Of a stretch of DNA of 64,000 nt, positions 4,884 to 61,291 are shown in pieces. Made by a program: the position numbers and the translations under genes. This stretch comes from an uncultured candidatus Porisulfidus sp. GTDB lineage: Bacteria; Pseudomonadota; Gammaproteobacteria; Poriferisulfidales; Poriferisulfidaceae. The notes beneath the pieces are model-generated. The model saw nothing but the letters and a program-made list of their open reading frames with translations. It was not told the DNA's origin and searched no databases. How positions within the stretch are numbered: the stretch's first letter is position 1; each line of letters opens with the position of its first letter. Where the stretch lies: assembly GCA_965199755.1 (NCBI GenBank), contig CBDASZ010000001.1:96001-160000 (forward strand). The letters run 5' to 3'.

Positions 4884-5878
4884 GACTTGACTTCTTCTTC
4901 GGTGTCCGCCGGTGCCACCTCAGCGGGAGCTTCTGCTTCAGCAGTCGGTTCCACAGCGGCGGGTGCCTCTTCCACTTGAGCGGTCTCGACCGCTTCTAGC
5001 TCGACTTCCTTGGGGGCGTCCGATTCGGCAGATTCGTCCGCAGTGTCTTTCGCCTTGGCTTTCTTCGGCTTCTTGTCTACCGCGTCAGCCTTGCCTTTCT
5101 TCGGGCCCGCGCGCAGCAGGGTGCGTTTGCCCTTGCGTTCCACGGAATCCGCACGTGGGCGGCGAACCGTGGGCATCGTCGCGCTGTCTTCCTCGGCCTG
5201 TTTGCGTCCCTCAAGAATCGCCTCGCAGACAATCTCCATATACAGCCGCACCGAACGAATCGCGTCATCATTGCCGGGGATCACATAGTCAATGCCGTCG
5301 GTGGAACTGTTGGTGTCCACCACCGCGATCACCGGAATGTTCAGGCGCTGCGCTTCGCGCACCGCGATGTTCTCATAGCGCACATCAATCACGAACAGCG
5401 CGTCCGGCAGACGCTCCATTTCTTCAATGCCGCCGAGACTGCGATTGAGTTTGACCTGCTCGCGGTCAAGCCGCAAGGCTTCCTTCTTGCTCAAGCGTTT
5501 GCGCAAGCCCTCTTCATCCATACGCCGCAGATCCTGCAAGCGCTTGATGGAATTGCGCACCGTATGAAAGTTGGTCAGCGTGCCACCGAGCCAGCGGTGC
5601 GCCACATACGGCACCTGGCACTCCTCGGCCTTGGCGCGAACAATGTCCTGCGCTGCACGCTTGGTACCAACCACCAAAATGGTCTTGCCTTCGGCTGCGA
5701 CCTGACGGATCGCGTCGGCCGCCTCATCCAGCATGCGCTGGGTGATTTCCAGATTGAAAATGTGAATTTTGTTGCGCTCGCCGAAAATATACGGTGCCAT
5801 CCCCGGATTCCAGTATCGGGTCTGATGCCCGAAATGGACACCGGCTTCCAGCATTTCGCGCAAGGTGGCGCGTGGCAT
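4880..5878 (-). CDS. rpsB: 30S ribosomal protein S2 with a long charged C-terminal extension
   Basis: [37 protein letters not shown]. Confidence 0.98.
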
Positions 5879-10402: not shown

Positions 10403-10813
10403 TCACTTTATGAGAATCGCAAACCTTTCCTGTTCGAAGTGATGATCGCTTGATAGAACCTCTTCTATGGAGTTCTCCTCCATGACAATCATGGAAATAC
10501 AGTCTTGCATGCTATATTTCTTGTCAGGCCGTTCCTTGTAACGTTTTAAACCTTTCATTAGAAGATCGTGGGTTTGCGGAACAACCCTGACGTTTGCATC
10601 TTCAAAAACGTTTTGTACTATCTTCACTCCATACTCGCGCAAGTCAGAGCCGAGATTTGAAAGGCCGGTCAGAAACTCTACCAGCACCGTCTCAGTAGTC
10701 ATCACCTTAACCTGTCCCAAGGCAGCGAATGCCTGCTCCGCCGCTTTATGCCATTGATCTTGGGGGTTGGCGATGGCGACCCAATATGAAGTATCTGCGA
10801 AAACAGTTTTCAC
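10403..10813 (-). CDS. PIN-domain (VapC-like) toxin
   Basis: VFADTSYWVA..DQWH, VLVE, YSMQDCISM, SSDHHFEQ acidic PIN residues. Confidence 0.9.
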   Translation of the reverse strand: MKTVFADTSYWVAIANPQDQWHKAAEQAFAALGQVKVMTTETVLVEFLTGLSNLGSDLREYGVKIVQNVFEDANVRVVPQTHDLLMKGLKRYKERPDKKYSMQDCISMIVMEENSIEEVLSSDHHFEQERFAILIK

Positions 10814-11721
10814 ACTTTGTCAGTTCCATAGATGTAATGGTCATGCTGGTGTGACAAATCTGTAGGCACTTTCTCCCATGCCTTCTCAGGAACTTTCTTG
10901 GAAAGATCCAAGACAACATCCTGAATACTGGGAACGTTAGGATCAAAACTGTCTCCTCCGGCAGGCTCAATTTTCAGCCACTCTACATTGTTAATTCTTT
11001 TTAGTGCTCCGTCCGGACCATACTCTCCGCACCCTCTAACGCGCAACTGTACAGACGCATAACCTATGAGCGCTTTGATGACGTCTGACTCTTGAGTGTC
11101 CGAGAACTCCACCTGCACATTCACTTTATCGTCTAACCAAATGTGAAAACATTTTCTGTGAACATCCACCACCAATACGCGACCAGTTATTTCCAACTCA
11201 TCTATATACGCGCTCCCTGAAGATTCAGCGAATCTTTGGCGCGCCTTCGAAGAAACAGGTGTCATTTCCTGATCAGGCGGTGCCAACTGCATCTCCGCGT
11301 CATCTGGCAACTTTTTCCCTAGCGGCACTAAATGAGACAGCATTTCTTTCGTGATGCCTTTAGGAAAAAGTTTCTCATTTTCAGCGGATTTAAGTGCTTG
11401 GTAGATCAAAGAGACCGACTCATCCACCAGCTCATGGTCTTCAAAAATCTCGCGTTGCCCCGAATTATCTCGCATTAATTCAAATGGAATAGTAGTGCTT
11501 CCCACTTCAATTCTCTTAATGACAAGTTTGGTGTGCTCATCAAAACTTTTAGGCAAGCGATCAGAGCCCGGATGGCGTCTCTTCCAGACAATCTTCGCCA
11601 TCTCCGAGACAATTTTCTGAAATCGCATCAGTTCTTCGAGGGCGCACGAATCAAGTGCACACTCGTCGTAGTGCGCGCCCTTAAAACGCAAGCACGCAAC
11701 TTCTCGCTTTTGATCGCTCAT
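10810..11721 (-). CDS. 303-aa hypothetical protein ending in an antitoxin-like tail (PTDLSHQHDHYIYG)
   Basis: AT-rich ORF whose stop overlaps the PIN start (GTGA); tail resembles small PIN-associated antitoxins. Confidence 0.75.
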   Translation of the reverse strand: MSDQKREVACLRFKGAHYDECALDSCALEELMRFQKIVSEMAKIVWKRRHPGSDRLPKSFDEHTKLVIKRIEVGSTTIPFELMRDNSGQREIFEDHELVDESVSLIYQALKSAENEKLFPKGITKEMLSHLVPLGKKLPDDAEMQLAPPDQEMTPVSSKARQRFAESSGSAYIDELEITGRVLVVDVHRKCFHIWLDDKVNVQVEFSDTQESDVIKALIGYASVQLRVRGCGEYGPDGALKRINNVEWLKIEPAGGDSFDPNVPSIQDVVLDLSKKVPEKAWEKVPTDLSHQHDHYIYGTDKV

Positions 11722-16209: not shown

Positions 16210-17409
16210 TCATGAGCCGTCGCGGATCACCACGCGGCGGCGGACATCCACCGCAGCCACATCACGCGCCACAATAAGCTCGCCAGCACGTACCGACCCC
16301 TCAATCACCTGCAACTCGCCGACGCGCGGACCCAGACTAACGTCCACCCGCTGCAAGCGATCTCCTTCAATGCGAAACACGGACTGCCCAGAAATCTCAA
16401 CGCGAACCGCCGCCACCGGCACCACCAGCACCCCGCGCAAGGAAGACAGCGGCAATCGCACCCGCGCCAACTGTCCCGACAGCGCGGCGTCGCCCGGAAT
16501 CCGCACGCGCAAGGCAAACGTATAGGTGCGCGGGTCCGGGTCCGCGCGCAATGCGACCAGCGTGCCCGGCACCTGCCTCTGGTCGACCTCCACATCCAGC
16601 ATCTGCCCCAATTCCAGTGCTGCGGCCGTCTCTCCATCCACCTCCACATAAAAGTCCAGCGCCGAAGAATCAATCACAGTCATCACGGGCTGATCGCCGG
16701 TAATGCGATCGCCGACTTCCACATCCACAGTATTGACCTGTCCGTCAAAGGGCGCGACCAGCCGGGTGCGCTCCAGATCTCGCCGCGCCCGATCCGCGGC
16801 CACTTGCTTGAGTTCAAGGCGCTGATCCGCGCCGTGGACCATCGCTTCCAGCGAGGCTTTCTCGGATTCGATGCCGGCCAGCATCTGTTCCGCCGCATTC
16901 AGCGCTGATTGCGACACCAGCGCTTTCTGATTCAACTCGCGCAACCGCTCGGACTCCTTGCGCTGCAAGTCGCGTTGGCGCGTCACCTGCTTCAGACGCA
17001 CGCGATCGCGTTCTACATAGCGCTGCTCCAGTTCCAGTTCCGCGCGGGCGGTGCGGTCCTGATCCATGAAGTCGCGATCATCCAGCACCAGCATCTCATC
17101 GCCCTTGCGTACCTGCATGCCTGGCTCCACCGAGCGCACCCGCAACTGACCGGTGAGATCAAAGCGCAACTCCGCGCTGCGCATCGGCAGCAAGCGTCCG
17201 GTGTAGATCGCTTCCGGCGTAATGTCACGCTGCTGCACAGCGTAAGCTTCCACCGCCATCTCCGGCAATTCGTTCAGTTTGGCTTCCGGCTTCGGCGCGG
17301 TCGCAAGCAGGCTCGCGGAAATCAGTGCCAGCAACACGAGCAGGGCGAGCGCCCACCGGCCCGAATGCGGAATGCGGCGCGCTACAGAATGCAGGACTTC
17401 ATGCGCCAT
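16210..17409 (-). CDS. RND periplasmic adaptor (membrane fusion protein)
   Basis: N-terminal TM, coiled coil, LVAPFDGQV, next to the RND permease. Confidence 0.9.
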   Translation of the reverse strand: MAHEVLHSVARRIPHSGRWALALLVLLALISASLLATAPKPEAKLNELPEMAVEAYAVQQRDITPEAIYTGRLLPMRSAELRFDLTGQLRVRSVEPGMQVRKGDEMLVLDDRDFMDQDRTARAELELEQRYVERDRVRLKQVTRQRDLQRKESERLRELNQKALVSQSALNAAEQMLAGIESEKASLEAMVHGADQRLELKQVAADRARRDLERTRLVAPFDGQVNTVDVEVGDRITGDQPVMTVIDSSALDFYVEVDGETAAALELGQMLDVEVDQRQVPGTLVALRADPDPRTYTFALRVRIPGDAALSGQLARVRLPLSSLRGVLVVPVAAVRVEISGQSVFRIEGDRLQRVDVSLGPRVGELQVIEGSVRAGELIVARDVAAVDVRRRVVIRDGS

Positions 17410-17566
17410 GCGTCACAGCCCCGAAGAAACGATAATACTCATAAATGCCATTATAGTAAGGGAAATGGCGTGACCCTAAGCGTATCAGGGTGAGTGCCGC
17501 GCAAGCACAACACCGCGAGAAAGGTTAAAATTGTCGTCTACCTGCGGCGTGGCGCGGCGTATCCGT

Positions 17567-17640
17567 TGGGGGATCGTCTAGTGGTAGGACTGCGGACTCT
17601 GACTCCGCCAGCGGGGGTTCGAATCCCTCTCCCCCAGCCA
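17567..17640 (+). tRNA. tRNA-Gln(CTG)
   Basis: Cloverleaf, anticodon loop CTCTGAC, CCA end. Confidence 0.96.
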
Positions 17641-17737
17641 TTTGAACGCATTGCGCGGTGACGCAACAAGGCTTTTTCCGCATTGTGATGTTCGGGGTGT
17701 TTTGCGCGAATGGCGCAAAACAGGTACGCTTGTGCAC

Positions 17738-17827
17738 GGAGAGTTGCCGGAGTGGTCGAACGGGGCGGTCTCGAAAACCGTTGTGCAACGTGTTGCACCG
17801 AGGGTTCGAATCCCTCACTCTCCGCCA
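17738..17827 (+). tRNA. tRNA-Ser(CGA)
   Basis: Long variable arm, anticodon loop CTCGAAA, CCA end. Confidence 0.96.
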
Positions 17828-17845
17828 TTTTGAAGGCAGGCGCAA

Positions 17846-17882
17846 GACAAGGGTCTGTCCGCGAAACGGACAGACCCTTGTC
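17846..17882. terminator. 16-bp perfect hairpin between convergent tRNA-Ser and porin gene (probable bidirectional terminator)
   Basis: GACAAGGGTCTGTCCG-cgaaa-CGGACAGACCCTTGTC; no clear U-tract. Confidence 0.6.
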
Positions 17883-17920
17883 CTCTTTCCTAGGCCATGC
17901 GGCCCGTATGCCGCTAAGGC

Positions 17921-18799
17921 TTAAAGCCCGAAAGCGTAGCCGATGCTCACCGTCAAGCGGGTCTCATCATCAATGTGCTTGTCGGAATCCACCACCGCAA
18001 TGGCGAAGTCCAGGTCACTGATGGTGGTCACATAGCCGATTTCGATGTAATCGCCTTCCGCATCGCCCTTGTCCTCGTCATCTTCAAGAACGCCGTAAGT
18101 GCCAAAAGTCACATATGCGCCCTTGTAGTCCAAGGTTAGCATGGCAATGTCGTAGTCGTTGTCGGCCGCGCCGCAGAAGTTTTCATGCTCGCCGATGGCG
18201 TAGTCCAGGGCGACCGTGAAGTCATCCTTGGCGTAGGCCACGCCGAGATTGATCTCGTCGTAATCCTGGTCGAAGCCGGTGCCAACACATTCCATCGCCG
18301 CCTCATAGTCGGCTTTGGTTGCAGCGTCCAGAGCATCGTATTCAGCCATCGTATACTCCATGTCTTCACCTTCGTCATCACCCACATACGTGTACTGATA
18401 AGTCGGTGTAGACGTCACCTCGCCACCGCCGGCAGGTGCCATAATCCGAGGCATTCCCATGACCATTTCCAAGGAGCCCTCATCATCCTCGGTATAGCGA
18501 TACGCGGTATAGCCGGCATACACTGACAAGCCGTTGTCGAACTCCCAGCCAAATCCGCCATACACGTCGATCTCGACGCCGCTGCCGGAGTCCAGATCAG
18601 CGAACCAGGTGCCCAGATAGAACGGCCCGGTCGCCAGATCAACGCCGCCATTGGCGACCGCGTCGGCCTGATGGAAGCCGCGATAAATGTAATCGGACAT
18701 CATGCCCAGATTGGCCGACAGATCCAGTTCGGCATGGGCGGGCAGTGACGCACCGCTGGTGACTACCGCAAATGCGGCAATTAATTTCCAGTTTTTCAT
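17921..18799 (-). CDS. TorF/TIGR02001-like putative outer-membrane porin
   Basis: Signal peptide, SANLGMMSDYIYRG, GGVD, FYLGTW, EIDVYGG, C-terminal aromatic strand. Confidence 0.8.
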   Translation of the reverse strand: MKNWKLIAAFAVVTSGASLPAHAELDLSANLGMMSDYIYRGFHQADAVANGGVDLATGPFYLGTWFADLDSGSGVEIDVYGGFGWEFDNGLSVYAGYTAYRYTEDDEGSLEMVMGMPRIMAPAGGGEVTSTPTYQYTYVGDDEGEDMEYTMAEYDALDAATKADYEAAMECVGTGFDQDYDEINLGVAYAKDDFTVALDYAIGEHENFCGAADNDYDIAMLTLDYKGAYVTFGTYGVLEDDEDKGDAEGDYIEIGYVTTISDLDFAIAVVDSDKHIDDETRLTVSIGYAFGL

Positions 18800-36416: not shown

Positions 36417-36470
36417 ACACCTATAAGCCTCTGGCGCATATAGCCCCCACTTAATCTTCAGGATTGAATG

Positions 36471-36944
36471 ATGAATCGTATCTCGCTACCGCGCGCAGTT
36501 GTTGCTGCCGCACTCTTTTTTGTCCCATTCGCTGACGCTGATGCCGAGGAACTTTCCGAAGCGCAACAAGCGGCCGTCGCGATGGTGGACGTCGCCGCTG
36601 CACACATCGGCAGTGACGGCATCGTCAGTTTGATCGACGCTGTCAACAATAAGGACGAACGCTATCTGGATGGCGACTTGTACATGTTTATTCTCAATGT
36701 AGGCGGCACAGTCGTAGCCAGCGCCGCGTTCCCGGACACGGTCGATCAGAACCCCAATGAGGCCACGGACCTAGACGGTAATGCGTTCCTCGGCAATCTG
36801 GTCGCAGACTCACGGAGCAACCCGGACGGCATCTGGTTCAGCTATCGCTGGAAAACCCCAGGCGGAGCCGTCGGCGAAAAAAGCAGCTGGCTTCGCTTCG
36901 TTGACGGGCACGTGCTCGGTGCCGGTGTCGTCACTCCCGACTAA
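36471..36944 (+). CDS. secreted stand-alone single Cache-domain protein, copy 1
   Basis: Signal peptide; DGDLYMF, DLDGNAF, GIWFSYRW, EKSSW, VLGAGV. Confidence 0.75.
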   Translation: MNRISLPRAVVAAALFFVPFADADAEELSEAQQAAVAMVDVAAAHIGSDGIVSLIDAVNNKDERYLDGDLYMFILNVGGTVVASAAFPDTVDQNPNEATDLDGNAFLGNLVADSRSNPDGIWFSYRWKTPGGAVGEKSSWLRFVDGHVLGAGVVTPD

Positions 36945-37021: not shown

Positions 37022-37495
37022 ATGAATCGTATCTCGCTACCGCTCGCAGCGATCGCCGCAGCACTCCTTTTTTTTCCGTTCGCTGACGCTGATGCCGAGG
37101 AACTTTCCGAAGCGCAACAAGCAGCCGTCGCGATGGTGGACGCCGCCGCCGGACACGTCGACAGTGACGGCATCGTCAGTTTGCTCGATGCCCTCAACAA
37201 CAAGGACGAGCGCTATCTGGCTGGCGACCTATACTTGTTTGTGCTCAATGTGGGCGGCACCGTCGTGGGCAACCCTGCATTCCCGGAGAGCGTCGACAAG
37301 AACCCCGATGAGGTCAAGGATGCGGACGGCAATGCGTTCCTCTCCAACATGGTCGCGGAATCGCGGGGCAACCCGGACGGCGTCTGGTTCAAGTACCGCT
37401 GGAGCACTCCGAGCGGAACCGTAGGTGAAAAGAGTAGCTGGCTTCGCTTCGTTGACGGACACGTGCTCGGTGCTGGAGTCGTCACCCCCAACTAA
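37022..37495 (+). CDS. secreted stand-alone single Cache-domain protein, copy 2
   Basis: Close tandem paralog of 36471-36944. Confidence 0.75.
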   Translation: MNRISLPLAAIAAALLFFPFADADAEELSEAQQAAVAMVDAAAGHVDSDGIVSLLDALNNKDERYLAGDLYLFVLNVGGTVVGNPAFPESVDKNPDEVKDADGNAFLSNMVAESRGNPDGVWFKYRWSTPSGTVGEKSSWLRFVDGHVLGAGVVTPN

Positions 37496-40276: not shown

Positions 40277-40351
40277 TGGCGCTCCCTAGGGGAATCGAAC
40301 CCCTGTTCCCGCCTTGAGAGGGCGATGTCCTGACCGCTAGACGAAGGGAGC
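40277..40351 (-). tRNA. tRNA-Glu(CTC)
   Basis: Minus-strand cloverleaf, anticodon loop CTCTCAA, CCA end. Confidence 0.93.
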
Positions 40352-40409
40352 GTGCTGTGTTTGGCGTGCCAGTATAAAGGTTTTGCGGAAATCGCGGCTT
40401 CCCAGCGCG

Positions 40410-40752
40410 TCAAACCCCTACTTGATGCAGCGCCACTTTCACCGTGTTGGCCACCAGACAAGCCACCGTCATCGGTCCGGTGCCTCCAGGCATCGGCGTG
40501 ATGTATCCGGCCACTTCACGCACCGCGTCGAACTGCACATCCCCTTGAATCTTCCCGTCCACACGGCTTACTCCTACATCAAACACGGCGGCACCCAGTT
40601 TGACATGATCGGCGCTGATGACTCCCGGACTGCCCGTCACCGCCACCAGAATATCGTCGAACAACTGCGATTCATAGCATAGCGACACCAGCGCACAGTC
40701 CGCACGGGAGCGCTCCAGCAAGCGGTCGTAGTAACCTTGGCGTTGCCCATGC
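40410..40752 (-). pseudogene. chimeric remnant: 5-formyl-THF cyclo-ligase 3' fragment fused to a folD 3' fragment
   Basis: [33 protein letters not shown] matches 48368-48480; DILVA...[15 protein letters not shown] matches 46514-46760. Confidence 0.85.
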
Positions 40753-40818
40753 ACAGTGGTGGTGAGGTGGTTGCGGAATTTTTGCATGCGGGTCATGCAA
40801 AAGACTGTTCGCGGTCTA

Positions 40819-41446
40819 TCAAAATCGGCGGTATGTAACAACTCGCGTCTGCTGCGAACCCTTTATGGTTGCCAGATCAGGCACCGTGCGTGTGGCACAT
40901 ACAGCGAAAACCATGCCGTTCCCAGAACCAATCAATAGCGCCGGGGCATGATGCGGGCTATAGCCGCGGCCAGAACGTGCAGATCGATTACTGTTCTGGT
41001 TGCTATGGTTGCGAAGACTGTTTGATTGGATGGCGATGGGATCACGATGTGAGGATTCGTTTGGGGATGACTCGACATGCTTGTTGGGTGCCCCCCGCGC
41101 ACAAGTCGACTGTTGTCCTGGTTGCAAGGGTCCCGAAAACTGCTTTGTTGCTCGGGGAGCTCCAGAGGACCCCCCCCCCCCCCTATATCTGTAGCTGATA
41201 CCTTGTATGTCGTCATTCACAGGCGTTGCTTTCTCGGCATCACCTGAGCTATCGGATCGAGAGTATGCAGACCCGGTACCGTGTTGGTCGCGACTGTCGC
41301 GAACACCGTCCGCGAAGTTGGCATTGTAATCACTATCGCTTTCTGGAGCAGATGCGGCCTTGTCTCCCTGTGAGTCCCAGATCGGGGGCTGACCTTGTGG
41401 CAAGCAGTCCCCATCCGATTTGAGTGCTGTTTGAGACATAGACTGC
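40819..41446 (-). repeat. array of five diverged ~120-bp TRD cassettes (41333-41446, 41217-41339, 41042-41170, 40932-41051, 40819-40941)
   Basis: Each encodes hydrophobic strand - (V)F/W-x3-AT(R/N)-x3-(D/G)L - basic end, then a stop; adjacent cassettes are in shifted frames. Confidence 0.9.
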
Positions 41447-44400
41447 CCCCCCCCCCCTGTTTCATTTCCACGAGGGAATAGCGCAGCAGCCGTTTTGCCT
41501 GCGGACAAGATACGCCAATCCTCATACAGCCAGATTTTTACAAATGGCCGGTATAACACCTCCCTGATATTAGCTTCATCAAAAGTAAGCCTGATTTGTT
41601 TGCGCAACGTTTTCTTAAGGGCATCCGTCCACTTGATTGATTTGATATTTTGAGTGCTTGTCAACTCATCAAGAGCTTGCTGGTTGTCTGGTTTCTGCAA
41701 GATGTCCAGTGTTTTGTTGTATGTGTTAATGAGTGCTTGGGCCTTATTAGCACACTCTTCCCTCGACCAACTGTAGACATAAGTGTCTAAGTTTGTCTTG
41801 ATGCCAGCAACACTGCTAGTAGCGACCGAAGCACTGGCGTTAGTAAGTTTCGCTCTTGTGTTTTTCTGACACAATGGCATCAATGAATTAAATTCCGGAT
41901 TGCCAAGATTAATCCAGGCATGATCTGGAGTCACCGGTATTGTCTCGAATTGTTCGTGGTAAACGTCACCGAGATCCTCTAGCCACTTAAACTTTTGCTC
42001 TAGACTCCGGGAGTCTGGGACCATCGCAATACGCAATGTTGCCGGTTTTTTAATATCCTTCTTCGGATCGTAAACCAAGAAAGTTATCTGGACCCCATTT
42101 CGGGAAGCGCTACCAAAAACCTTATCCCCCTCAAGTTCCCATTCGCTACCACTCTTGTAAGCGTTCCCCCGCAAATTTGCAACATATATGTCCGTGAATT
42201 CGTCTCGCAGAACCTTTCTCATGCCTGCCAGCGAGGTGGCATCCGACAGAGAGTTTGGCGTAACCATTGCCAAAATTCGCGGCCCCGAGGTGACACCTTC
42301 CTGTCCCTGCTTCAGTATCCGGTCGGAGCCCCAGCGCAGTGCCTTGACATATAAGTTGCCACCTGCGTTCCCGCCGGGTGCCCGGCCAGTCAGCTGAGTG
42401 TGTTCTTGAACATAAGTCTGGTGCACCCGCTTGGCGATATCCTGATAGAGAATGTTCGATGCTTTCTCTGATGCGTCATCCTTGCCACTGGACCATGGCG
42501 GGTTCGTCACCAGAACCTCAATATCGGCATCACCTTGGCGCCGTACCCGCTTGTAGTTGTCCTCAAGGTCGTCTGAGTCCAGATTTAGTCGAGCACTTGA
42601 ACTTCCCGGATCAAGTAGAAGCGTGTCAACCAAACTTAAGGACTCGAACGGCTCGTAAGACAACTTGGAGGGGTCTGCCACGCCGGCTTCCTCAACTTGG
42701 CGCTGATGCTTCGTGGCTTCGATGTTCAGGTTTGCAATGTAGTAGGGGAGGAGGAGAAGTTCATTGCCGAAAAACTCCCGCCGGTATTTTCGTGAAAGGT
42801 CAGGCTCGCGAATAAGGTAATTGCCATCGTTATCCCGGAGATTAAGAAGCCGTGCGAGGAATGTCCCTGTGCCAGCGAAGGGTTCCAAAATACGAACATT
42901 CTTGTCAGAAATGCTTTTCCCAAATTCCTTCTGACAAATAGCCTCAATGGAATGTAGCACGAAATCCACAATTTCCACAGGCGTGTATGCAATGCCCATA
43001 GATTTCACTTGACCCGGTATTGCTTGCCGGAAAAAGCTTTCATAGATCTGGCGCAAGATGTCAAGTTTTTTCGCATCACGATCTTGGATTTTCTCCAAAT
43101 TTCGCTCACATCGCTGATCTTCATCAACCAGTTCATCGGCGTGTAAAGCAGTCCGCATCATTTGATACGGGCGCTCCAGTGGTTCGAGTTCAGCCCGGTA
43201 TTCCATTCCCTCAACCTCAAACGCATCCAGTACCTTCTGAATCGCAGCTGACACGGGATTGTCATCGGCAAAATGAGACTGCGAAAAGAACTCATCAAAG
43301 ACTGGTAGCGTGACGATGTGGTGCGCCAGCATGCTGACCGCCATAGTCCGATTGATATTCGGACTGACTGCCTTTTGGAGGTCCACCAAGAACCCATTGA
43401 AGTGCTCTTCAACGGCCGAATTATTATCAACGTGGGCATTGATTTTGGTTTCAATCTTGTCTGAGATTTCAGCCGCGTGCTTGCCCCACTGCAGATACAT
43501 GTGACGGTCGCCACATTCTTCAATTACGAGTGACCCGAATTTCTCTGCTATTGCTTGCCTAAACTTTTCTGGGTCCGCATAGATTGTGTCCTTGAGGTCG
43601 TCACGGACAGAGTCGTCCCTTTTGAGCGGCGGAAGTAATTTGAACGTTACTGGCAATGCACCAGCTTCAATTTCATAGTTTAAACGTTCGTCGTGTGAGC
43701 GCAATGCTCGAATGATTTCGTAGACAGGCTCGAAAGCACTTTTCCTCAGTGTTTTCTCAGCAGCGGCCTTCACATCCCCCCAATCCCAGCTCATCTGAAG
43801 CTGAAGCACTACTGGAATGATCACATAGCCTATCTTCTTATGTGGCGCTCGGCGCATGACCCGGCCCACTGCTTGCGTCACATCAATAGGAGACCGTCTT
43901 GTTTGGAGAAAAACAACCGCATCCAGAGAAGGAACGTCAACTCCCTCAGTGAGTACTCGGACATTTGTCAGAAGTTCGCATACATTTCCCGCAGTGTCTT
44001 TGTGAACTTGCCGCAACCTGTCAAGTTGCGCATCACGTTCAAACGCTGGTGTCTTTGCATCCAGATGATTTACCGACAGTTCCAGTAACTCTGTTTGACC
44101 GTCAGATGGCTCTTCGTCCGAGGCGGAGTACCACTTGATCACGTCGTTCCAAACTTTCTGAATTCTTTTGCTTTCTTTCACACGTGATGCAAATACCAGG
44201 GCAGAGCGGCAGGGTTCCCCATACTGGTCAAGGTTGATCCCACCAATTGGAAGTTCCGGATGTTGCCCCTTTGAGAGTGGGCTAGCTAGCGCATCCCAGC
44301 AACCAGCAAGTTTGATGATGGTTTCGGAGTCAATTTGTTCTCCACCTACATCTATCTCTCGGCCTGCGACTTCACGCTCAAAATCATCCTGTGTGCCACC

Positions 44401-45741
44401 AATGATTACGATCTCGTAGTCGCTCAAATAACCCTCTTTGATAGCATGAGCGAAACTCATCCGATATGCCTCATCGCCGTATGTTTCGACATCGTCCATA
44501 GAATAACTCTGTCCATCAAAATTGCGTTGCTCGAGTTTTTTTCGATGAGTGGGAGTAAACACCCTCGGAGTTGCCGTCATATAGATACGCTTCCTCGCAG
44601 GTAAATACGTGTCGGAATGCAACAAAAGAAAAGGTGATGTGTTTTCGATCTCACTGGCATGCGGCAGGCTGGAAATTTCCTTGTCTGGGTGTTTGAGCTT
44701 CTTCTTTTTCTGCTTGTTATCTTCAATTCCTGTAGTTCGGTGCGCCTCATCAGCGATGATCAGGTCAAGAGTGGCTTTCTTCCCATCGCGTTCAAGCAAA
44801 GATAATGCGAGCGCAAGAACATCTGATGACTGATAAGTACAAAATACGACTCTCATGGCCCCACCTGGCACAGGCTTGGACAACCTTTCCGCCAACTTCT
44901 TTGGCCGGGTCGTGACGGGGATAGGCATTTCAATTACTGATGTCCCATCATCCCTGCCGACCGTTTTGTCGGAACACACCGCAATGTACTCAATAGGTAC
45001 ATCGCGATCGCGATGGCGAGACCACTCTTTTATGGTCTGCCGAACGAGAGCAAGTGACGGCACCAGATATGCAATGGTCTTGCCGGATCCAAACAATTTC
45101 TCAGCAGTACGCAAAGCAACGAAGGACTTCCCGGTGCCGCACGGCAATATCAGTTTGGTGCGGTCTTTTCCTTCAAGCTCCGCTTGAATGCCCTTAATTG
45201 CCTCTCTTTGAAAGTCGTGTAGTTCATGTCGTTTTGTAACAAAGTGTGATGGCCGGACATCAAATTGTTCAAGTGCACCTACAAGACTCTCCCGATCATC
45301 AAACCAGCCAGCAATATCTTGAGTCGTAATCACTTGACATTCAGGGTTTGCATTTTCGAGTTGCGCCTGTACGTTTGAGGTGAGAGAGCGGGTTGTGACT
45401 ATCAAGCGCAGTTTGAATTTCTCGGACTCGCTGGCACCCAGAAAGGAATCAACTTCAGCTTTTCTTACTGTCGAACTGCCGTACTTCGCTTGGACCGCAA
45501 CTAAGCCTCCGCCGTAAGTTTCCGTCTGTTTGGCAACAATGTCTACGCCAATATCAATCCGGCCCCGGTAATCAACGTTGTCAGGCCAGTCCCTCCAGAG
45601 CCAAACGTTCTCGAACCTGTCACGGCCCCAGTCACCAGGGTGTTTCGTAAAGACCTGATGAATGAACTGTTCAAACGTTCGTCCTTGTTGCTGGCGCGAA
45701 CCTTGAAAGTAATTGTCGAAAATTTCTTCGATGCTTTCCAT
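40819..45741 (-). CDS. Type ISP restriction-modification enzyme (Mrr-like nuclease, SF2 helicase, N6-adenine MTase, partial TRD) with a frame-switchable C-terminus
   Basis: GVDIVA..VAVQAK nuclease; [23 protein letters not shown] helicase; EPFAGTGTF and NPPW MTase; [13 protein letters not shown] motif. Confidence 0.92.
41170..41183 (-). repeat. poly-G14 slippage tract 2 (coding strand)
   Basis: C14 on the plus strand directly before cassette 3. Confidence 0.95.
41446..41457 (-). repeat. poly-G12 slippage tract 1 (coding strand)
   Basis: C12 on the plus strand directly before cassette 1. Confidence 0.95.
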
Positions 45742-45781: not shown

Positions 45782-46459
45782 CTATGAGTCAAATAAAGAC
45801 CCCGAGTCAGTTGAGACTTCCGATAAAGGTTCAGAGGGCAGTGCCGGCGGCAATGAGCGGATGATTCGGGTCGACTCGATACCAATATAAATGAGGCGGC
45901 GCAAGTGATTGATCAATTCGACAGAGTTATCTGCCCACGCATGCCATGTATTTGGATCGTCACGTATGCCAGAGCGTTTATCAAGCTTCTCACGGAGCGA
46001 GCCAACGGCCCACTCAAGTGGCGACCTGCCAGAGATCTGGTACTCATGCGCCTCAGGAGGGATATCGACTAGTCTGCAATGGTCATTGACGTGAAGAACG
46101 GACCTGTCTTCCTGCTTTGTTTCAGGGTCCTTGCCAAACCGCATCTGCTTGACAATCCGGTACCTGAGATTCTCATCGACACTCTCGTCAACGATACACT
46201 TGACATCAGCCAGAGGAGCTTGCTCGTAGTCGGCGTGCAACTCGAAAAGCTCCGCGCCTGCTTTACAAAATTTCTGAAAGGCCTCAACCCCACCTGGGAC
46301 GAGCGGGATGGATGGCAGATTCTTCTGTAGATCATTCTTGAACTCACGCCGCCAGTCGGGCGCGTGCATAACACCGTAAATGTAATCCCAAACGTCGTCT
46401 TTGGTTATATCCTCTGATTGATAGACTTTCTGAAACTGTGCCAGCGACCAATCGGACAC
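45782..46459 (-). CDS. separately encoded C-terminal part of the Type ISP specificity domain
   Basis: ITKDDVWDYIYGVMHAPDWRREFKNDLQKNLPSIP, IPPEAHEYQISGRSPLEW, SGIRDDPN: the usual extreme C-terminus of ISP enzymes. Confidence 0.88.
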   Translation of the reverse strand: MSDWSLAQFQKVYQSEDITKDDVWDYIYGVMHAPDWRREFKNDLQKNLPSIPLVPGGVEAFQKFCKAGAELFELHADYEQAPLADVKCIVDESVDENLRYRIVKQMRFGKDPETKQEDRSVLHVNDHCRLVDIPPEAHEYQISGRSPLEWAVGSLREKLDKRSGIRDDPNTWHAWADNSVELINHLRRLIYIGIESTRIIRSLPPALPSEPLSEVSTDSGSLFDS

Positions 46460-46478
46460 ATTATCTGTTTCATATGGA

Positions 46479-46493
46479 GGGGGGGGGGGGGGG
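46479..46493 (-). repeat. poly-C15 tract (coding strand) just after an out-of-frame ATG
   Basis: G15 on the plus strand; ATG at 46500-46498. Confidence 0.95.
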
Positions 46494-46513
46494 CAAGCAT
46501 GGGAATCCCGGTG

Positions 46514-47374
46514 CTAATTGCCCGAGTTATGTAGTGCCGCCTTCACAGTATTCGCCATCAAGCAGGCAACTGTCATGGGCCCGGTGCCGCCTGGCATCGG
46601 CGTGATATAGTCAACCACTTCGTGCACTAAATCAAATTGAATATCTCCTCGTATTATGCCATCCACACGCGAGACCCCCACATCAAAGACGGCGGCACCC
46701 GGTTTAACGTGATCGGCACTAATGATCCCGGGACTTCCGGCAGCTGCTACCAGAATATCCGCCTCCCGCGTCAACTGCATCAGGTCCCGTGTGCGCGAAT
46801 GCGCCAGTGTTACCGTCGCATCCACGCCTCGCTCAGCCAACATCATTGCCATTGGCACGCCGACCAGCCGGGAGCGACCCAGTACAACTGCACGTGCGCC
46901 CTCGGTCTCAATTTTGTAATGGTTAATCAGTTCAATCACACCCGACGGCGTGCAGGGGCGCAGGCCTGGCAAGCCAACCGACAAGCGGCCTAGGTTGATT
47001 TCAGTCAGACCATCGACATCCTTGTGCGGTGGAATTGCGTGTAGAACAGGCCCTGCGTCCAAGTGCGATGGCAACGGCATCTGCACCAGAATTCCGTGCA
47101 CGGTCGAATCCTGCGCCAGAATGTGAATCGCTTCAATCAGATCTTCTTGCTTGGTGTCTGAGGGAAGCGCCAGATGACGGGACAGGATGCCTACTTCGCC
47201 GGCTTCCGCGATCTTCCGTGAGATGTACAACTGGCTGGCCGGATCGTCACCGACCAACACCGTGGCTAGTGTGATGGGAGGAAGGCCGCGAATTTGCTCA
47301 CGCAGCCGACCGCACAAAGCATGCGCGACGGCAGTGCCGTCGATAATCTTCCCGGAATGTAAGGGCTCACTCAA
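46514..47374 (-). CDS. folD: methylenetetrahydrofolate dehydrogenase/cyclohydrolase
   Basis: [42 protein letters not shown]. Confidence 0.95.
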   Translation of the reverse strand: MSEPLHSGKIIDGTAVAHALCGRLREQIRGLPPITLATVLVGDDPASQLYISRKIAEAGEVGILSRHLALPSDTKQEDLIEAIHILAQDSTVHGILVQMPLPSHLDAGPVLHAIPPHKDVDGLTEINLGRLSVGLPGLRPCTPSGVIELINHYKIETEGARAVVLGRSRLVGVPMAMMLAERGVDATVTLAHSRTRDLMQLTREADILVAAAGSPGIISADHVKPGAAVFDVGVSRVDGIIRGDIQFDLVHEVVDYITPMPGGTGPMTVACLMANTVKAALHNSGN

Positions 47375-48297: not shown

Positions 48298-48930
48298 TCA
48301 ATCCCGGCCGCGACCTGTGTACACCGCCGCTTCGGTCACAACGTAGTCCATATACACATCGTGCGGTGCCACCAGAATCTCATCAAACAGTTGCGATTCA
48401 TAGCACAGCGACACCAGCGTGCAATCCGAGCGGGAGCGCTCCAGCAAGCGATCGTAGTAGCCTTGCCCGTTGCCCATGCGACCACCGTCACGGTCGAAGC
48501 CAACGCCGGGAACCATCACAAAGTCCAGCTCTTCCGGTTCGACTTCCTTGTCCGGGTTGCCCCACATGTCTTTCGGCGGCTCCAGAATGTTCCATTTGCC
48601 GACCACCATCTCCTCGAGGCTTTCCATGTGCCACAGGCCGAGCTTGTTCTCGCCCTGCTCATCCACGGTGCAGTACGGCACGATCACTTTCTTCTCGCCG
48701 CGCGCCACTTCTTCGAGCAATTCCGGCTTGGTGCGGGTCTCGGAGCGGCAATCGATGTACCACATGATGACGTGGGCTTTCTGGTATTCCTCCAGCGCCA
48801 TCAATCGGGCGACCGCCTGATGGCTGATTTCATCTTTGTTTTCCTGGGCATTGCGGCGATCGTAGGCTTCGCGGCGCATTTTGCCCTTGCGCTCCATGAT
48901 GGCTTCGAGTTCTTCTTGCGACAAGGCCAT
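48298..48930 (-). CDS. 5-formyltetrahydrofolate cyclo-ligase
   Basis: [35 protein letters not shown]. Confidence 0.92.
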   Translation of the reverse strand: MALSQEELEAIMERKGKMRREAYDRRNAQENKDEISHQAVARLMALEEYQKAHVIMWYIDCRSETRTKPELLEEVARGEKKVIVPYCTVDEQGENKLGLWHMESLEEMVVGKWNILEPPKDMWGNPDKEVEPEELDFVMVPGVGFDRDGGRMGNGQGYYDRLLERSRSDCTLVSLCYESQLFDEILVAPHDVYMDYVVTEAAVYTGRGRD

Positions 48931-58212: not shown

Positions 58213-59112
58213 TCAGATTGCAGGGTTTGCGAATAAGTCACCAGTATTTTGACTTCGGGGTTTTGTATCAGTGCCATGCTCCCATCCGTGAAATGAAGGC
58301 TTGGAAAACGCGAGGCGGCGACTCATAACCTTCATCGCCTCAGGATTGTTGTCCACTAGAACAGCATCACGCCCCGCCCGGACTGCGGCCTCCCCAGTGG
58401 TCCCACTTCCCGCAAAAAAGTCTAATATTTTGTCGCCATAGTTTGAGTGAACGTTAATTATGCGATTGATAATGGCGATGGGCTTCTGCGTCGGGTACCC
58501 TGTCTTCTCTTTGCCATTCGGGCTGACAATGGTCTGCCACCACACATCCGTCGGTGTCTTGCCTCGGGCCGCTTTCTCGGGACCTACAAGAGCGGGTGCC
58601 ATATACGGAATACGGTCTATCTTGTCGTAACAGTAGGTGTAGTTGTTCGGATCTTTGGTATACCAGAAGATGTTGTCATGTTTGGTTGACCATCTTTTCT
58701 TTGATCTGGCGCCATAATCGTATGCCCAGATAATTTCGTTCATAAACGACTCGCGACCAAAGATTTCATCTAGTAGAACCTTGCAGTAATGAGACTCACG
58801 GGAGTCAATGTGGAAAAAAAACGATCCGTGCTCGGACAAAAGTCGGTATGCTTCCCTGAGGCGCGGCTCTATGAACCCCACGAAGTCATCAAAGCTGTCG
58901 TTATAAGAAGATTCATCAAGAATTTTTGTCTTGTATCGCTTTCCCTGAAAGCCGGTGCGATCGCCCTGTTCGTCCCTTACCGTTTTCAGTCGTTTGCGGG
59001 ATTGCTTTTTCCCAGTGTTGAATGGGGGATCGATGTAAATTAAGTCGAATGAGCCAGTTTCCAATTTTGACAGGACATCCAGACAATCACCGAAGTGGAT
59101 TTCCAATGTCAT
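58213..59112 (-). CDS. orphan beta-class N4C/N6A DNA methyltransferase
   Basis: LIYIDPPF (motif IV) before LDFFAGSGTT (motif I); YPTQKP; lower GC than neighbours. Confidence 0.92.
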   Translation of the reverse strand: MTLEIHFGDCLDVLSKLETGSFDLIYIDPPFNTGKKQSRKRLKTVRDEQGDRTGFQGKRYKTKILDESSYNDSFDDFVGFIEPRLREAYRLLSEHGSFFFHIDSRESHYCKVLLDEIFGRESFMNEIIWAYDYGARSKKRWSTKHDNIFWYTKDPNNYTYCYDKIDRIPYMAPALVGPEKAARGKTPTDVWWQTIVSPNGKEKTGYPTQKPIAIINRIINVHSNYGDKILDFFAGSGTTGEAAVRAGRDAVLVDNNPEAMKVMSRRLAFSKPSFHGWEHGTDTKPRSQNTGDLFANPAI

Positions 59113-59244
59113 CGTGAAAACATGCCCTCTGGATTGTGCGCCATATCTTCCGCTCTTGGATGAGACGCATAATCTTGGTTTTGGCAACCCTCATTATTCC
59201 ACACAGAACTCCGAAGCCCCGATTTCTGACTCAGCCTCCTGCAA

Positions 59245-59727
59245 TTATTCGTGGCGAACGAATTCTTGCATTACAAACGAATACGCATGCCGCGCATCCA
59301 CTTCCTGTCGCCGCTCGCGCAACAGTTCGAACTCCGATAAATCCGGCGACACAAACATCGTGTCACCCGACGGGGAAGCCTCAACGCGAGTCAGATACAG
59401 GCGATCGCAGTGGGGCAGAAAGTGTGTGAACAGCGACACGCCTCCGATCACCACCAGTTCCGCGGCCCCAGCGCAAAGAGCCACACCTTCTTCCGGGGTC
59501 TGCACACACTCGCAGTCCCCGCTTTGGGGTGTTCCCGTCACCACTATGCAACGACGGCGGGGTAGTGGAACGGGAAGTGACTCCCAGGTGCGTCGTCCCA
59601 TCAAGACAGGCTTATCAAGGGTCAGCCTGCGAAAGTTTTTCAGATCCTCTGGCAGGTGCCAAGGCAGGCGCCCATCCTTGCCGATGACGCCATTCTCCGC
59701 AATGGCCAGAATGACGGAAATGATCAT
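59245..59727 (-). CDS. folA: dihydrofolate reductase
   Basis: [29 protein letters not shown]. Confidence 0.95.
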
Positions 59728-60518
59728 ACCGCTACCGGAGCCGCGATATGCGAGTGGCTTTGATAATCCCGCAACTCTATGTCATCGAAAGTGAACGCAA
59801 ACAAATCGGTGACTTCAGGATTGAGATGCAGTGTGGGTGGTGCGTAAGGCTCACGCTGTAGTTGTTCCCGCGCTTGATCCAAGTGGTTTTGATACAAGTG
59901 TAGGTCACCAAACGTATGCACGAACTCACCGGATTTTAGTCCGCACACCTGCGCCACCATCAACGTCAGCAAGGCGTACGAGGCGATATTGAACGGCACG
60001 CCGAGAAACAGATCGGCGCTGCGCTGATACAGCTGACACGACAGCCGATCTCCCGCGACATGAAACTGGAATAACAGGTGACAGGGTGCGAGCGCCATGC
60101 GATCAAGGTCAGCAACGTTCCAGGCGCTGACAATATGTCGGCGTGAGTGCGGCTGTTCACGCAACGACTGCAGAACTGCTCGAATCTGATCATGTGTGCG
60201 ACTATCAGCGCCCGTCCAATTGCGCCACTGCGCCCCATAAACCGGACCCAGGTCACCATGCTCATCCGCCCATTCGTCCCAAATACTCACACCCTGCTCT
60301 CGAAGAGACTGCACGTTGGTCTCGCCACGCAAGAACCACAGCAATTCGTGGACAATGGATTTCAGGTGAAGCTTCTTGGTGGTGAGCAGCGGAAACCCGT
60401 CGCTCAGGTCATAACGGTTCTGGTAGCCGAAGACGGCGAGCGTTCCGGTTCCCGTGCGATCTTCTTGAGGGCGGCCGTGCTCCAGCACGTGTCGCAACAT
60501 GTCGAGATAGGTCTTCAT
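59724..60518 (-). CDS. thyA: thymidylate synthase
   Basis: [33 protein letters not shown]. Confidence 0.98.
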
Positions 60519-61291
60519 GCGGGAGATCTCTGCGCGCGAAATAGTAACACCAACCCCACGATCAGAAGCGGCACACACAGCAACTGTCCCATCGTCAGCC
60601 AGCCAAAGGCCAGATAGCCGATGTGCGCATCCGGTACGCGCACCAACTCAACGGCCATACGCGCGAGTGCATATCCGGCAGCAAACAGGCCGGCCAGCAG
60701 CCCCACTGGACGCGGTGCGCGCGCCACCCACCACAGCACAACGAAAAGCACCAAGCCCTCCAGAGCAGCTTCATATAACTGCGAAGGATGGCGGGGCTCT
60801 GATCCCGCGGCCGGAAAAATCACGCCCCACGGAAGGGAGGTCGTACCACCCCAAAGTTCACCATTGATAAAGTTGCCGAACCGTCCGAAGAAAAGCCCAA
60901 TGGGAACCATTGGGACGCAGAAATCCAATGTGTTGAGAAGACCGATCTGATTCTTGCGGGCCCACAACCAGAAGGCGAGCACCACACCAATGAGGCCGCC
61001 GTGGAAACTCATACCGCCTTCCCAAACGCGCAGCACCATCAACGGATCCGCAAGTAAACGATCAAAGTGATAAAACAGTGCTGAACCAAGACGGCCGCCG
61101 ATGATGGTGCCGAGCGCACCATAAACCAGGAGATCGCTGACTTGATCGGGCACCAGCGCTGTATGCTCCCGCCGCGCATGAACCACACCCAGCGCCCAGA
61201 ATCCGGCGAAGCCCAACAGATACATCAGGCCATACCAGTGGATACGTACGGGGCCTAGCGCGAGGGCGATCGGATCCCAGTCAAGCAGCAT
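60515..61291 (-). CDS. lgt: prolipoprotein diacylglyceryl transferase
   Basis: [35 protein letters not shown]. Confidence 0.97.

Follow-up and report, generated by a model that had tools for sequence, protein, structure and literature searches.

The closest described relatives of the enzyme considered here, the Type ISP proteins LlaGI and LlaBIII (PDB 5FFJ and 4XQK), are single polypeptides in which an Mrr nuclease, a superfamily 2 (SF2) motor, a coupler, a γ-class N6-adenine methyltransferase and one fixed specificity domain follow one another. The specificity domain is made up of a core, a jaw and a guide, the last of which takes no part in recognition; a hairpin (1347-1358) stabilizes the core, and Loop VI (LlaGI 1365-1374) reads bases through H1368, G1372 and Q1373, with N1360 of LlaBIII being equivalent to H1368 (PMC4872093). 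The same domain order recurs in a 64,000-nucleotide stretch of DNA from an uncultured Candidatus Porisulfidus sp. of the Gammaproteobacteria (contig CBDASZ010000001.1, positions 96,001 to 160,000; this whole stretch is hereafter termed the window, and coordinates refer to it). Unlike in LlaGI and LlaBIII, the specificity domain is here interrupted immediately behind the strand following Loop VI, what remains of the domain is encoded by a separate gene, and the cut end exists, in this locus and its relatives, in 3-7 alternatives that would be picked by repeat tracts. We interpret the locus as an array of cassettes belonging to a split Type ISP-like system that can take several switchable states, in which specificity is chosen by frame switching through repeat length, and would assign this interpretation a probability of about 0.7.

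The closest precedent that we found for such switching is NgoAV of Neisseria gonorrhoeae, in which the loss of one G from the poly-G tract of hsdS1 fuses hsdS1 to hsdS2 and changes the target from GCAN8TGC to GCAN7STCA (PMC9577141). The likeness lies in a poly-G tract at the end of a specificity gene that shifts the frame and hence the target. As described there, NgoAV has two specificities and one tract, with neither overlapping cassettes nor DNA used in three frames, and strains with an inactive locus are reported; in contrast, the arrays considered here have up to seven endings and up to three nested tracts, every frame appears productive, and the domain is split. Several specificities are likewise drawn from silent modules at one locus by the recombination switches of Type I hsdS genes (PMC7394358), but these recombine between inverted repeats, whereas the modules here all lie in one orientation and would be picked by reading frame; no recombinase was seen among the open reading frames (ORFs) listed beside the island that carries the array. 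Frame-shifting simple repeats within restriction-modification genes are also the basis of the phasevarions of Type III mod and Type I hsd genes (PMC5909438, PMC7383803). Phasevarions are described as ON/OFF systems, while the array in the window has no OFF frame, all nine frame combinations leading to a cassette, and the assembled ORFs of all 30 arrays compared below (30/30) end at a cassette.

The array occupies the 3' end (40819-41457) of an ORF of 1640 amino acids on the minus strand (45741-40819). This ORF lies in a patch of about 5.7 kb with a G+C fraction of 0.48-0.51, compared with about 0.58-0.62 in the flanks, and the patch is flanked by a complete folD gene (46514-47374) on one side and a 3' remnant of folD on the other. 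The constant part of the large gene (41458-45741, minus strand), whose final residues read ...LFPRGNET, contains an N-terminal Mrr_cat_2 nuclease domain (residues 41-144, Pfam E-value 1.2e-22), an SF2 motor followed by a coupler (ResIII 1.7e-15, Helicase_C 3e-9, ISP_coupler 3.4e-24) and an N6_Mtase domain (residues 893-1093, 4.1e-7). An NPPW sequence is present in the ORF, which we take to be the catalytic motif of a γ-class N6-adenine methyltransferase. The protein thus shares with the Type ISP enzymes an Mrr-family nuclease at its N-terminus, the SF2 ATPase with its all-helical coupler and the γ-class N6-adenine methyltransferase domain. It departs from them in that it is not a single polypeptide, the specificity domain being split both here and in 30 related loci, and for this reason we use the names 'Type ISP-like' or 'split Type ISP'. 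Residues 1309-1416 of the large ORF cover only positions 5-101 of the 342 positions of the Pfam Type_ISP_C profile; the profile is distributed over two ORFs, with positions 5-101 in the constant part, about 105-160 in the cassette, and 171-340 (E-value 1.2e-43) in a separate ORF of 225 amino acids upstream.

This second gene, termed here the C-protein gene, lies at 45782-46500 on the minus strand (listed ORF 46459-45782) and probably supplies the rest of the core and the guide of the specificity domain, as judged from the profile match. Its homologues are separate small ORFs in 30 related loci, with 52-58% identity to the copy in the window; they are mostly 226-342 amino acids long and have a short acidic N-terminus followed by a conserved D-N-(I/V)-(T/S)-D-W sequence. 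In most of the upstream stretches inspected there is an in-frame ATG, in several cases with AGGAG just before it. The position of the gene varies among the relatives: it is found downstream of the array in some, upstream of the large gene in others, and in others again on the opposite strand. As the C-protein is a separate ORF in such varied positions and orientations, we rejected the idea of a circular element integrated in the gene, which had been prompted by the upstream location of the C-terminal part, by the C15...G12 brackets and by a shared sequence at both break points, together with the tailing of DNA ends and an inversion involving the G and C tracts, the last of which would in any case not join the parts. 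The shared sequence, ATGAAACAG (9 nucleotides), occurs in the same reading frame just before the G12 tract (41458-41466) and just after the C15 tract (46462-46473); it is probably a coincidence, because E-T-D-N is also found at the start of the C-protein of another locus (L032).

Two poly-G tracts punctuate the array, which we describe by labeling each frame with the window coordinate of its first codon base, modulo 3, on the minus strand, and by locating cassettes with a profile built from the ORF tails of relatives. The G12 tract (41446-41457, minus strand; switch 1) directly follows ...LFPRGNET, and the G14 tract (41170-41183, minus strand; switch 2) lies 262 nucleotides further on; both were defined by run counts and frame analysis. 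Behind them, all on the minus strand, lie five cassettes of about 40 amino acids: cassette 1 in frame 1 (41336-41445, 22.3 bits, with no residue between its end and the stop at 41335-41333), cassette 2 in frame 2 (41220-41345, 34.2 bits, stop 41219-41217), cassette 3 in frame 1 (41045-41169, 58.3 bits, stop 41044-41042), cassette 4 in frame 2 (40935-41072, 43.0 bits, stop 40934-40932) and cassette 5 in frame 0 (40822-40956, 37.7 bits, stop 40821-40819). The stop of cassette 2 and a short spacer (41184-41219, minus strand) are read in frame 0 toward switch 2. The cassettes thereby use all three frames, each ending 0-4 residues ahead of its own-frame stop. Neighboring cassettes overlap by 10-28 nucleotides, and each stop falls inside or beside the next cassette. 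Frame 0 is free of stops from the gene body to 40821, frame 2 contains stops only at 41219, 40934 and 40865, and frame 1 at 41335, 41332, 41251, 41242, 41215, 41185, 41044, 41005, 40990, 40960 and 40879. Hence four routes across bypassed cassettes are stop-free: about 36 codons in frame 2 over cassette 1, 87 codons in frame 0 over cassettes 1 and 2 to G14, about 40 codons in frame 2 over cassette 3, and about 76 codons in frame 0 over cassettes 3 and 4. All three frames stay open over cassettes 1 and 3, frame 0 is also open over cassettes 2 and 4, and frame 1 has stops in cassette 2. A sequence-only reading of this DNA had already described the four stop-free routes, the two cassettes open in three frames and the placing of each own-frame stop in or beside the next cassette; the stop map, the cassette model and the coordinates agree with it on each count, and the bypass peptides that it quoted were located within the 1640-residue ORF. 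It did not recognize that what is left of the specificity domain is encoded by a gene of its own. We discarded an interpretation in which only two frames are open, frame 1 being junk and the weak frame-2 similarity a decayed cassette, since frame 1 holds two true cassettes. Tandem Repeats Finder reported no repeats in 40300-42000, the cassettes being too diverged at the DNA level.

Reading of the stops together with the cassette hits shows that all nine combinations of frames at the two tracts (9/9) end at a cassette, and therefore the switch would change the ending and never turn the gene off. According to the mechanism that we propose, the large protein, with its nuclease, motor and methyltransferase and the initial portion of the specificity domain, would end in one of the five cassettes, and the 225-residue C-protein would dock in trans, thereby completing the clamp about the target. 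The reading frame would be changed by slippage in G12 and G14 such that, at each tract, one frame leads to the first cassette, a second runs across it to the next, and the third runs across both to reach the next tract or the last cassette. At switch 1, a tract of 13 G (or 10 or 16) would lead directly to cassette 1, one of 11 or 14 to cassette 2 after 36 out-of-frame codons, and one of 12 or 15 through 87 codons on to switch 2; entered in frame 0, switch 2 would give cassette 3 with G15, cassette 4 with G13 and cassette 5 with G14. The bypassed cassettes would be translated out of frame as a stop-free, polar and probably unstructured loop ahead of the cassette in use. In the present assembly the ending in frame is cassette 5, behind a linker of 167 amino acids.

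The tracts G12, G14 and C15 (46479-46493, minus strand by run count, G15 on the plus strand, just after the ATG at 46500 of the C-protein gene) are each a frame-shifting repeat in or just upstream of a coding sequence and longer than expected by chance. There are 11 overlapping matches to a run of 11 G in the window against 0.08 expected, and in the genome as a whole (1.39 Mb) G/C runs number 14 of length 7, two of length 8, none of 9-10, and nine of 11-16, three of which are at the present locus. The presence of nine runs of 11-16 with none of 9-10 is as expected of maintained contingency repeats. An artefact of poly-G assembly was excluded, as the same tracts and arrays are present in many independent assemblies, including complete chromosomes among the metagenome-assembled genomes (MAGs).

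The cassettes were matched to a part of the solved enzymes through an intact relative from the genus of the window (genome G013, locus L004), which aligns over about 640-680 residues with LlaGI (E-value 1.6e-133) and LlaBIII (4.3e-123). Its cassette-homologous stretch corresponds to LlaBIII residues 1334-1375, approximately, and contains N1360; by offset, the same stretch holds H1368, G1372 and Q1373 of LlaGI. In the alignment N1360 follows P-D-V and occupies the site that comes next after the cassettes' conserved D-L, at which cassette families differ from each other. The cassette columns of the family profile align to the same LlaGI stretch with 7.1 bits, which is weak by itself, though collinear with the strong first match. 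The hairpin part is the more conserved part of the cassette, and the residues after D-L are variable. Each cassette thus corresponds, by alignment, to the β-hairpin plus the base-reading Loop VI, followed by a stop, and it is likely that different cassettes direct the enzyme to different target sequences.

To place the locus in its family, we consider first three proteins from other assemblies that are 83% (P0002), 72% (P0004) and 75% (P0003) identical to the protein in the window over residues 1150-1420 and share its tail. Both P0002 and P0004 have GGGG, the homologous 87-residue bypass, GGGGG and then the cassette 4 ending; P0003 has one tract, the homologous 76-residue bypass and the cassette 5 ending, with the segment bearing cassettes 1 and 2 absent. 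A scan of one genome per species recovered 47 loci with 28-56% identity to the constant part, mostly in MAGs of Acidimicrobiia, with others in Candidatus Poriferisocius and Candidatus Spongiisociaceae (Actinomycetota), one Longimicrobiales (Gemmatimonadota), one Thermoanaerobaculia (Acidobacteriota) and several Dehalococcoidia, which we take to belong to the Chloroflexota. The related loci therefore come from at least four phyla, mostly from sponge-associated MAGs, and the public runs that contain the sequence of the window are labeled sponge metagenome. Nearly every locus with a match of 45-56% has 3-7 cassettes in rotating, overlapping frames, and ahead of the cassette groups there are runs of 9-20 G or C, (GA)n or (CA)n, or units of 4 or 5 nucleotides in up to 28 copies; the switch repeat units are 1, 2, 4 or 5 nucleotides long, every one of them frame-shifting. 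Among the weaker matches (28-32%) the specificity domain is contiguous, as in classical enzymes. Within the order of the window, 10 of 41 genomes, including that of the window itself, match the C-protein, and no homologous array was seen there, the weaker matches not having been closely examined; the matches outside the genome of the window are 28-43% identical, and the five strongest (L004-L008) are contiguous classical enzymes.

The family tests that follow use 30 arrays, namely the window and 29 loci. The cassette scan covered the window and the 45 loci L013-L057, with L058 and L059 outside it. From this set we dropped L015 and L022, whose contigs end in or near the array; L028, L036 and L045, in which the array is not at the standard place; L050, whose constant part has no open frame; L055, which is of the classical type; and L021, L034, L048, L049, L051-L054 and L056, which have fewer than two cassette hits past the score and length filters. 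Of these, L015, L022, L028, L036, L045 and L050 bear arrays and yet stand outside the counts. The assembled ORF terminates with a cassette in every one of the 30 arrays, behind linkers of 0-302 amino acids, and the rank of the cassette in frame is 1 in ten arrays, 2 in seven, 3 in six, 4 in one, 5 in four, 6 in one and 7 in one; that relatives are in frame with different cassettes fits switching without being a measure of it. The number of cassettes equals 2k+1 for k major repeat tracts in 26 of the 30 arrays, which is the exact count of a tree with two cassettes and an onward route at each tract and three cassettes at the last. Coarse clustering, in which subtypes are lumped, gives 15 clusters of cassettes, and 14 of the 30 arrays repeat a coarse cluster.

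Whether the open frames could have arisen by chance was assessed by recoding. In the window the bypassed cassettes were recoded with synonymous codons (20000 recodings per segment, with the probability taken as the product over the four segments), and the needed frames were all open with a probability of 1.1e-5 under uniform codon choice, 7.5e-5 under the gene's own codon usage, 7.9e-5 under that of host genes, and 9.3e-4 under that of the cassettes themselves, the last being circular. Both of the other frames stayed open in 1.4-6.7% of trials for cassette 1 and in 0.8-3.8% for cassette 3. The frames that no route needs do hold stops, with three each in cassettes 2 and 4 (shift +1) and two and one in cassette 5, and the needed frames hold none. 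For the family, non-overlapping cassette codons were recoded synonymously, with 100 recodings per codon usage. From the constant part, 147 of 151 cassettes in the 30 arrays can be reached through open frames if the frame changes at repeats only, and 28 arrays are reachable in full; the null expectation is 68.9 ± 5.5 cassettes (maximum 81) with pooled cassette usage and 44.2 ± 2.6 with uniform usage. The density of stops follows the position of the cassette behind its repeat: in stops per codon, first cassettes have 0.012 at shift +1 and 0.007 at shift +2, second cassettes 0.061 at shift +1 and none in 2330 codons at shift +2, and third cassettes 0.045 and 0.013. Stops are thus depleted in exactly the needed frames, as expected if the first cassette needs both other frames, the second one and the third none. 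These results uphold the contention of the sequence-only reading that selection keeps the alternative frames open, in that stop-free bypass frames are rare under synonymous recoding (1.1e-5 to 9.3e-4 in the window; 147 of 151 cassettes reachable against 68.9 ± 5.5) and the bypass frames of homologous arrays are poor in stops where they are needed (0.012, against 0.061 and 0.045). They support the view that selection maintains open frames in this DNA beyond a single one.

In their own frames the cassettes are under purifying selection. Among members of the same coarse cluster at different loci, differences are distributed over codon positions 1, 2 and 3 as 0.28/0.20/0.52 in first cassettes (38 pairs), 0.22/0.12/0.66 in second cassettes (18 pairs) and 0.22/0.12/0.67 in third cassettes (3 pairs). 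This own-frame bias toward third positions indicates that the cassettes evolve as coding sequence.

The 81 bypass peptides of the 30 arrays (4019 residues) contain four stops against a null mean of 67.9 (minimum 48). The bulky hydrophobic residues VILMFW make up 12.5% of these peptides, and their mean Kyte-Doolittle value is -1.31; the corresponding figures for the cassettes are 25.8% and -0.13. The recoding null already gives 14.6 ± 0.3% (minimum 13.9%) and -1.10 ± 0.03, and as it comes this near to the observed values with only a small extra shift, the polarity of the linkers is mostly a mechanical by-product. The earlier description of the bypass as polar and poor in bulky hydrophobics thus holds as to composition, but this composition is largely automatic out of frame (14.6% as against 12.5%). 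In one alignment of relatives (A2, columns about 200-480) the out-of-frame linkers of different loci can be aligned with each other (e.g. ...HD-L---G--...DQG-PAD-GD...), presumably because they overlie homologous cassettes.

Structure models suggest how an ending behind a long linker might be accommodated. We modeled residues 1280-1640 of the large protein, comprising the first specificity part, the 167-residue bypass and cassette 5, in complex with the C-protein. The model scored 0.81 against 0.02 for the best of three controls; a score of 0.81 is reached by 58 of 80 solved complexes and by 2 of 110 mismatched pairs, counts which are rough because the alignments were our own. At least 19% of contacts are common to the runs, and the predicted local distance difference test (pLDDT) of the partner is at least 82. 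Confident contacts of the first chain fall in residues 41-54, 118-124 and 320-358, the last being cassette 5, with none in 145-316. As LlaGI and LlaBIII were solved as single chains, this result may reflect likeness rather than binding. In an AlphaFold2 model of the 361 residues, positions 147-188 and 192-315, in the bypass, have pLDDT below 50 and no secondary structure, and residues 322-357, the cassette, have pLDDT 75-82 and form a hairpin and a further strand; low AlphaFold2 confidence in a poorly aligned stretch is, however, no proof of disorder. The models are consistent with the earlier suggestion that a distal cassette folds back into the domain on a tether, and it is probable that the large protein binds the C-protein in trans and that forms with long linkers are made and active.

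Several observations weigh against this interpretation. Population data took the form of assembled (Logan) contigs of public runs. A contig of run X1 over 41087-41597 and one of run X2 over 41087-41590 are identical to the window save for two gaps and one gap, respectively, and one contig of X1 has six letters fewer at the C15 tract; homopolymer errors could equally produce such length differences, though we expect that the tracts do change in length at useful rates. The RNA contigs of run X6 cover the gene body only (43368-45723); the missing cover over the array carries no weight, as these are assembled contigs. The enzyme encoded by the present assembly would carry a 167-residue insertion, and because of this insertion and of the frame of the C-protein's ATG, which C15 puts off by one base, this copy may currently be inactive. 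In cassette 2, PGL replaces PDL, its G standing where D343 is invariant in 29 of 29 aligned relatives, and cassette 1 scores only 22.3 bits. Four of the 151 cassettes are unreachable, leaving two of the 30 arrays incompletely reachable, and four of 30 depart from the 2k+1 rule. The counts themselves rest on a cassette profile built from the same loci that were then counted, on related and hence non-independent loci, and on arbitrary repeat thresholds. Lastly, a new specificity would meet an unmethylated genome, and how the cell survives a switch is unexplained.

Among the alternatives, the one that fares best, though it is still unlikely, holds that only the cassettes directly behind a tract are functional, that read-through forms are OFF-like, and that distal cassettes come into use after deletions between tracts. 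It can draw on P0003, which is without the segment between the two tracts, on a contig of run X3 that joins 41128 to 41498, skipping 369 nucleotides, on the burden that an insertion of 100-300 residues within a folded domain would represent, and on the ten of 30 arrays that are set at rank 1. Yet OFF states need no open frames, and frames here are open over up to 302 codons; furthermore, 20 of the 30 assembled genomes are at ranks 2-7, and the models place a distal cassette in the fold with the insert looped out. The same P0003 and X3 sequences suggest that arrays may also be altered by the loss of segments between tracts.

Homopolymers of 12-20 nucleotides are slippery for RNA polymerase. The frame might accordingly be chosen mainly by slippage of polymerase or ribosome during transcription or translation, giving mixed endings in each cell in place of heritable variants, and frameshift suppression is reported at (AG)n repeats in a mod gene fragment of Mycoplasma bovis expressed in Escherichia coli (preprint 10.64898/2026.04.01.715767). 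A mixture of endings would also sidestep self-restriction after a switch. We regard this explanation as quite unlikely as the principal one: many arrays have repeats of 4 or 5 nucleotides in up to 28 copies, which are classic substrates of replication slippage, and the in-frame cassette differs among assembled genomes, though both mechanisms can coexist.

It is improbable that the cassettes do not set specificity and vary instead to evade anti-restriction proteins of phages or to tune the pairing with the C-protein. The confident model contacts with the C-protein do include cassette residues, and no member of the array family has a known target sequence; the variable residues after the conserved D-L, however, align with the base-reading Loop VI of LlaGI and LlaBIII, and it is the hairpin part, packed in the core, that is the more conserved. 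Finally, a graveyard, in which the cassettes would be defunct duplicates or remnants of former alleles lying behind a gene disrupted at a poly-G tract, with open frames due to chance or composition, is very improbable and largely refuted: for all that the specificity domain looks broken at first sight, the low-G+C island adjoins a duplicated folD 3' end, cassette 2 is without an invariant residue and off-frame stops are rarer in G+C-rich DNA, the recoding nulls stand at 1e-5 to 9e-4 for the window and at 69 ± 5.5 against 147 reachable cassettes for the family, stop depletion is confined to the needed frames, similar cassettes, grouped into coarse clusters, come back in 18-28 of the 30 arrays, 26 of 30 follow the 2k+1 rule, third positions account for 52-67% of the differences, and every one of the 30 assembled ORFs terminates with a cassette. 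The sequence-only reading had likewise argued against a graveyard.

The locus has further features that may bear on its regulation. With 15 C in the tract, the ATG at 46500 misses the frame of the ORF by one base, and a length of C16 or C13 would restore it; C15 is probably an on/off repeat for the C-protein gene. Many relatives (e.g. L013:6665, L024:6693, L025:6681, L031:6696, L037:6678, L042:6694 and L057:6694) have a run of C13-C19 where the large ORF begins, and this run may switch the entire enzyme on and off; the large gene of the window does not have this run at its start. One Spongiisociaceae locus (L017) carries three arrays (about 4990-5690, 10780-11650 and 17175-18040), two C-protein genes and 11 poly-G tracts within 20 kb. 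Elsewhere in the genome of the window, long G/C runs are found in or at the end of a second helicase and N6-methyltransferase gene (C1:850197), in a D12-class adenine methyltransferase gene (C2:131557) beside DUF6996/6997/7226, in a frameshifted HATPase_c_3 gene (C2:165003), in a family-9 glycosyltransferase fragment (C2:266339) and just upstream of a 1159-residue Calx-beta/fn3 protein (C2:9879), with the remaining one at C2:218866. The nine long runs look like a set of contingency loci in this 1.39-Mb genome.

At the far edge of the island a chimeric ORF of 143 amino acids (40410-40841, minus strand) resembles the C-terminus of 5-formyltetrahydrofolate cyclo-ligase (48298-48930) in residues 35-64, approximately, and that of folD (46514-47374) in residues 63-139, over 231 nucleotides with 74% identity; it has the appearance of a divergent duplicate of that gene cluster from which an internal part has been deleted. 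In runs X1 and X2, contigs link 40353, at the end of a tRNA-Glu, to 40746, skipping 392 nucleotides, and another contig of X2 links 40353 to 40816; the folD remnant may be lacking or replaced in some strains. A second patch of low G+C (0.47-0.50) in the window holds an ORF of 324 residues (58213-59187, minus strand) with a DPPF motif, which from its translation appears to be DNA methyltransferase-like, beside ORFs of 160 residues (59245-59727) and 284 residues (59724-60578) whose translations read as folA-like and thyA-like, respectively. Two tandem paralogous ORFs of 158 and 157 residues with signal-like N-termini and very similar sequences are located at 36468-36944 and 37022-37495 on the plus strand.

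No description of repeat-selected cassette arrays or of split Type ISP enzymes was found in open-access papers and bioRxiv preprints, and the combination of 2k+1 endings behind k repeats, DNA used in three frames and a domain split that exposes the reading loop appears to be previously undescribed. A more far-reaching version, to which we give somewhat better than even odds, sees in these arrays a frame-multiplexed library of endings, with a folded domain cut such that the loop that reads bases forms the C-terminus, 2k+1 loops in rotating, overlapping frames for k slippery repeats, every tract length giving a working enzyme with a different target, translation in three frames, one as cassette and two as spacer, and horizontal spread through sponge-associated bacteria of at least four phyla as a source of shifting anti-phage specificities. 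If the proposed interpretation is correct, repeat-driven phase variation can choose between as many as seven alternative recognition loops without any OFF state, selection can hold bacterial DNA open in three frames, which the relatives allow to be measured, and the splitting of a domain can render an internal loop exchangeable. The engineering of Type ISP specificity has been described as an unaccomplished challenge (PMC4872093), and the arrays would provide naturally occurring versions of Loop VI on one shared scaffold, with which the rules by which these enzymes recognize targets could be tested directly. The arrays would, moreover, help to explain how defence diversifies in sponge-associated bacteria, including the bearer of this 1.39-Mb genome.

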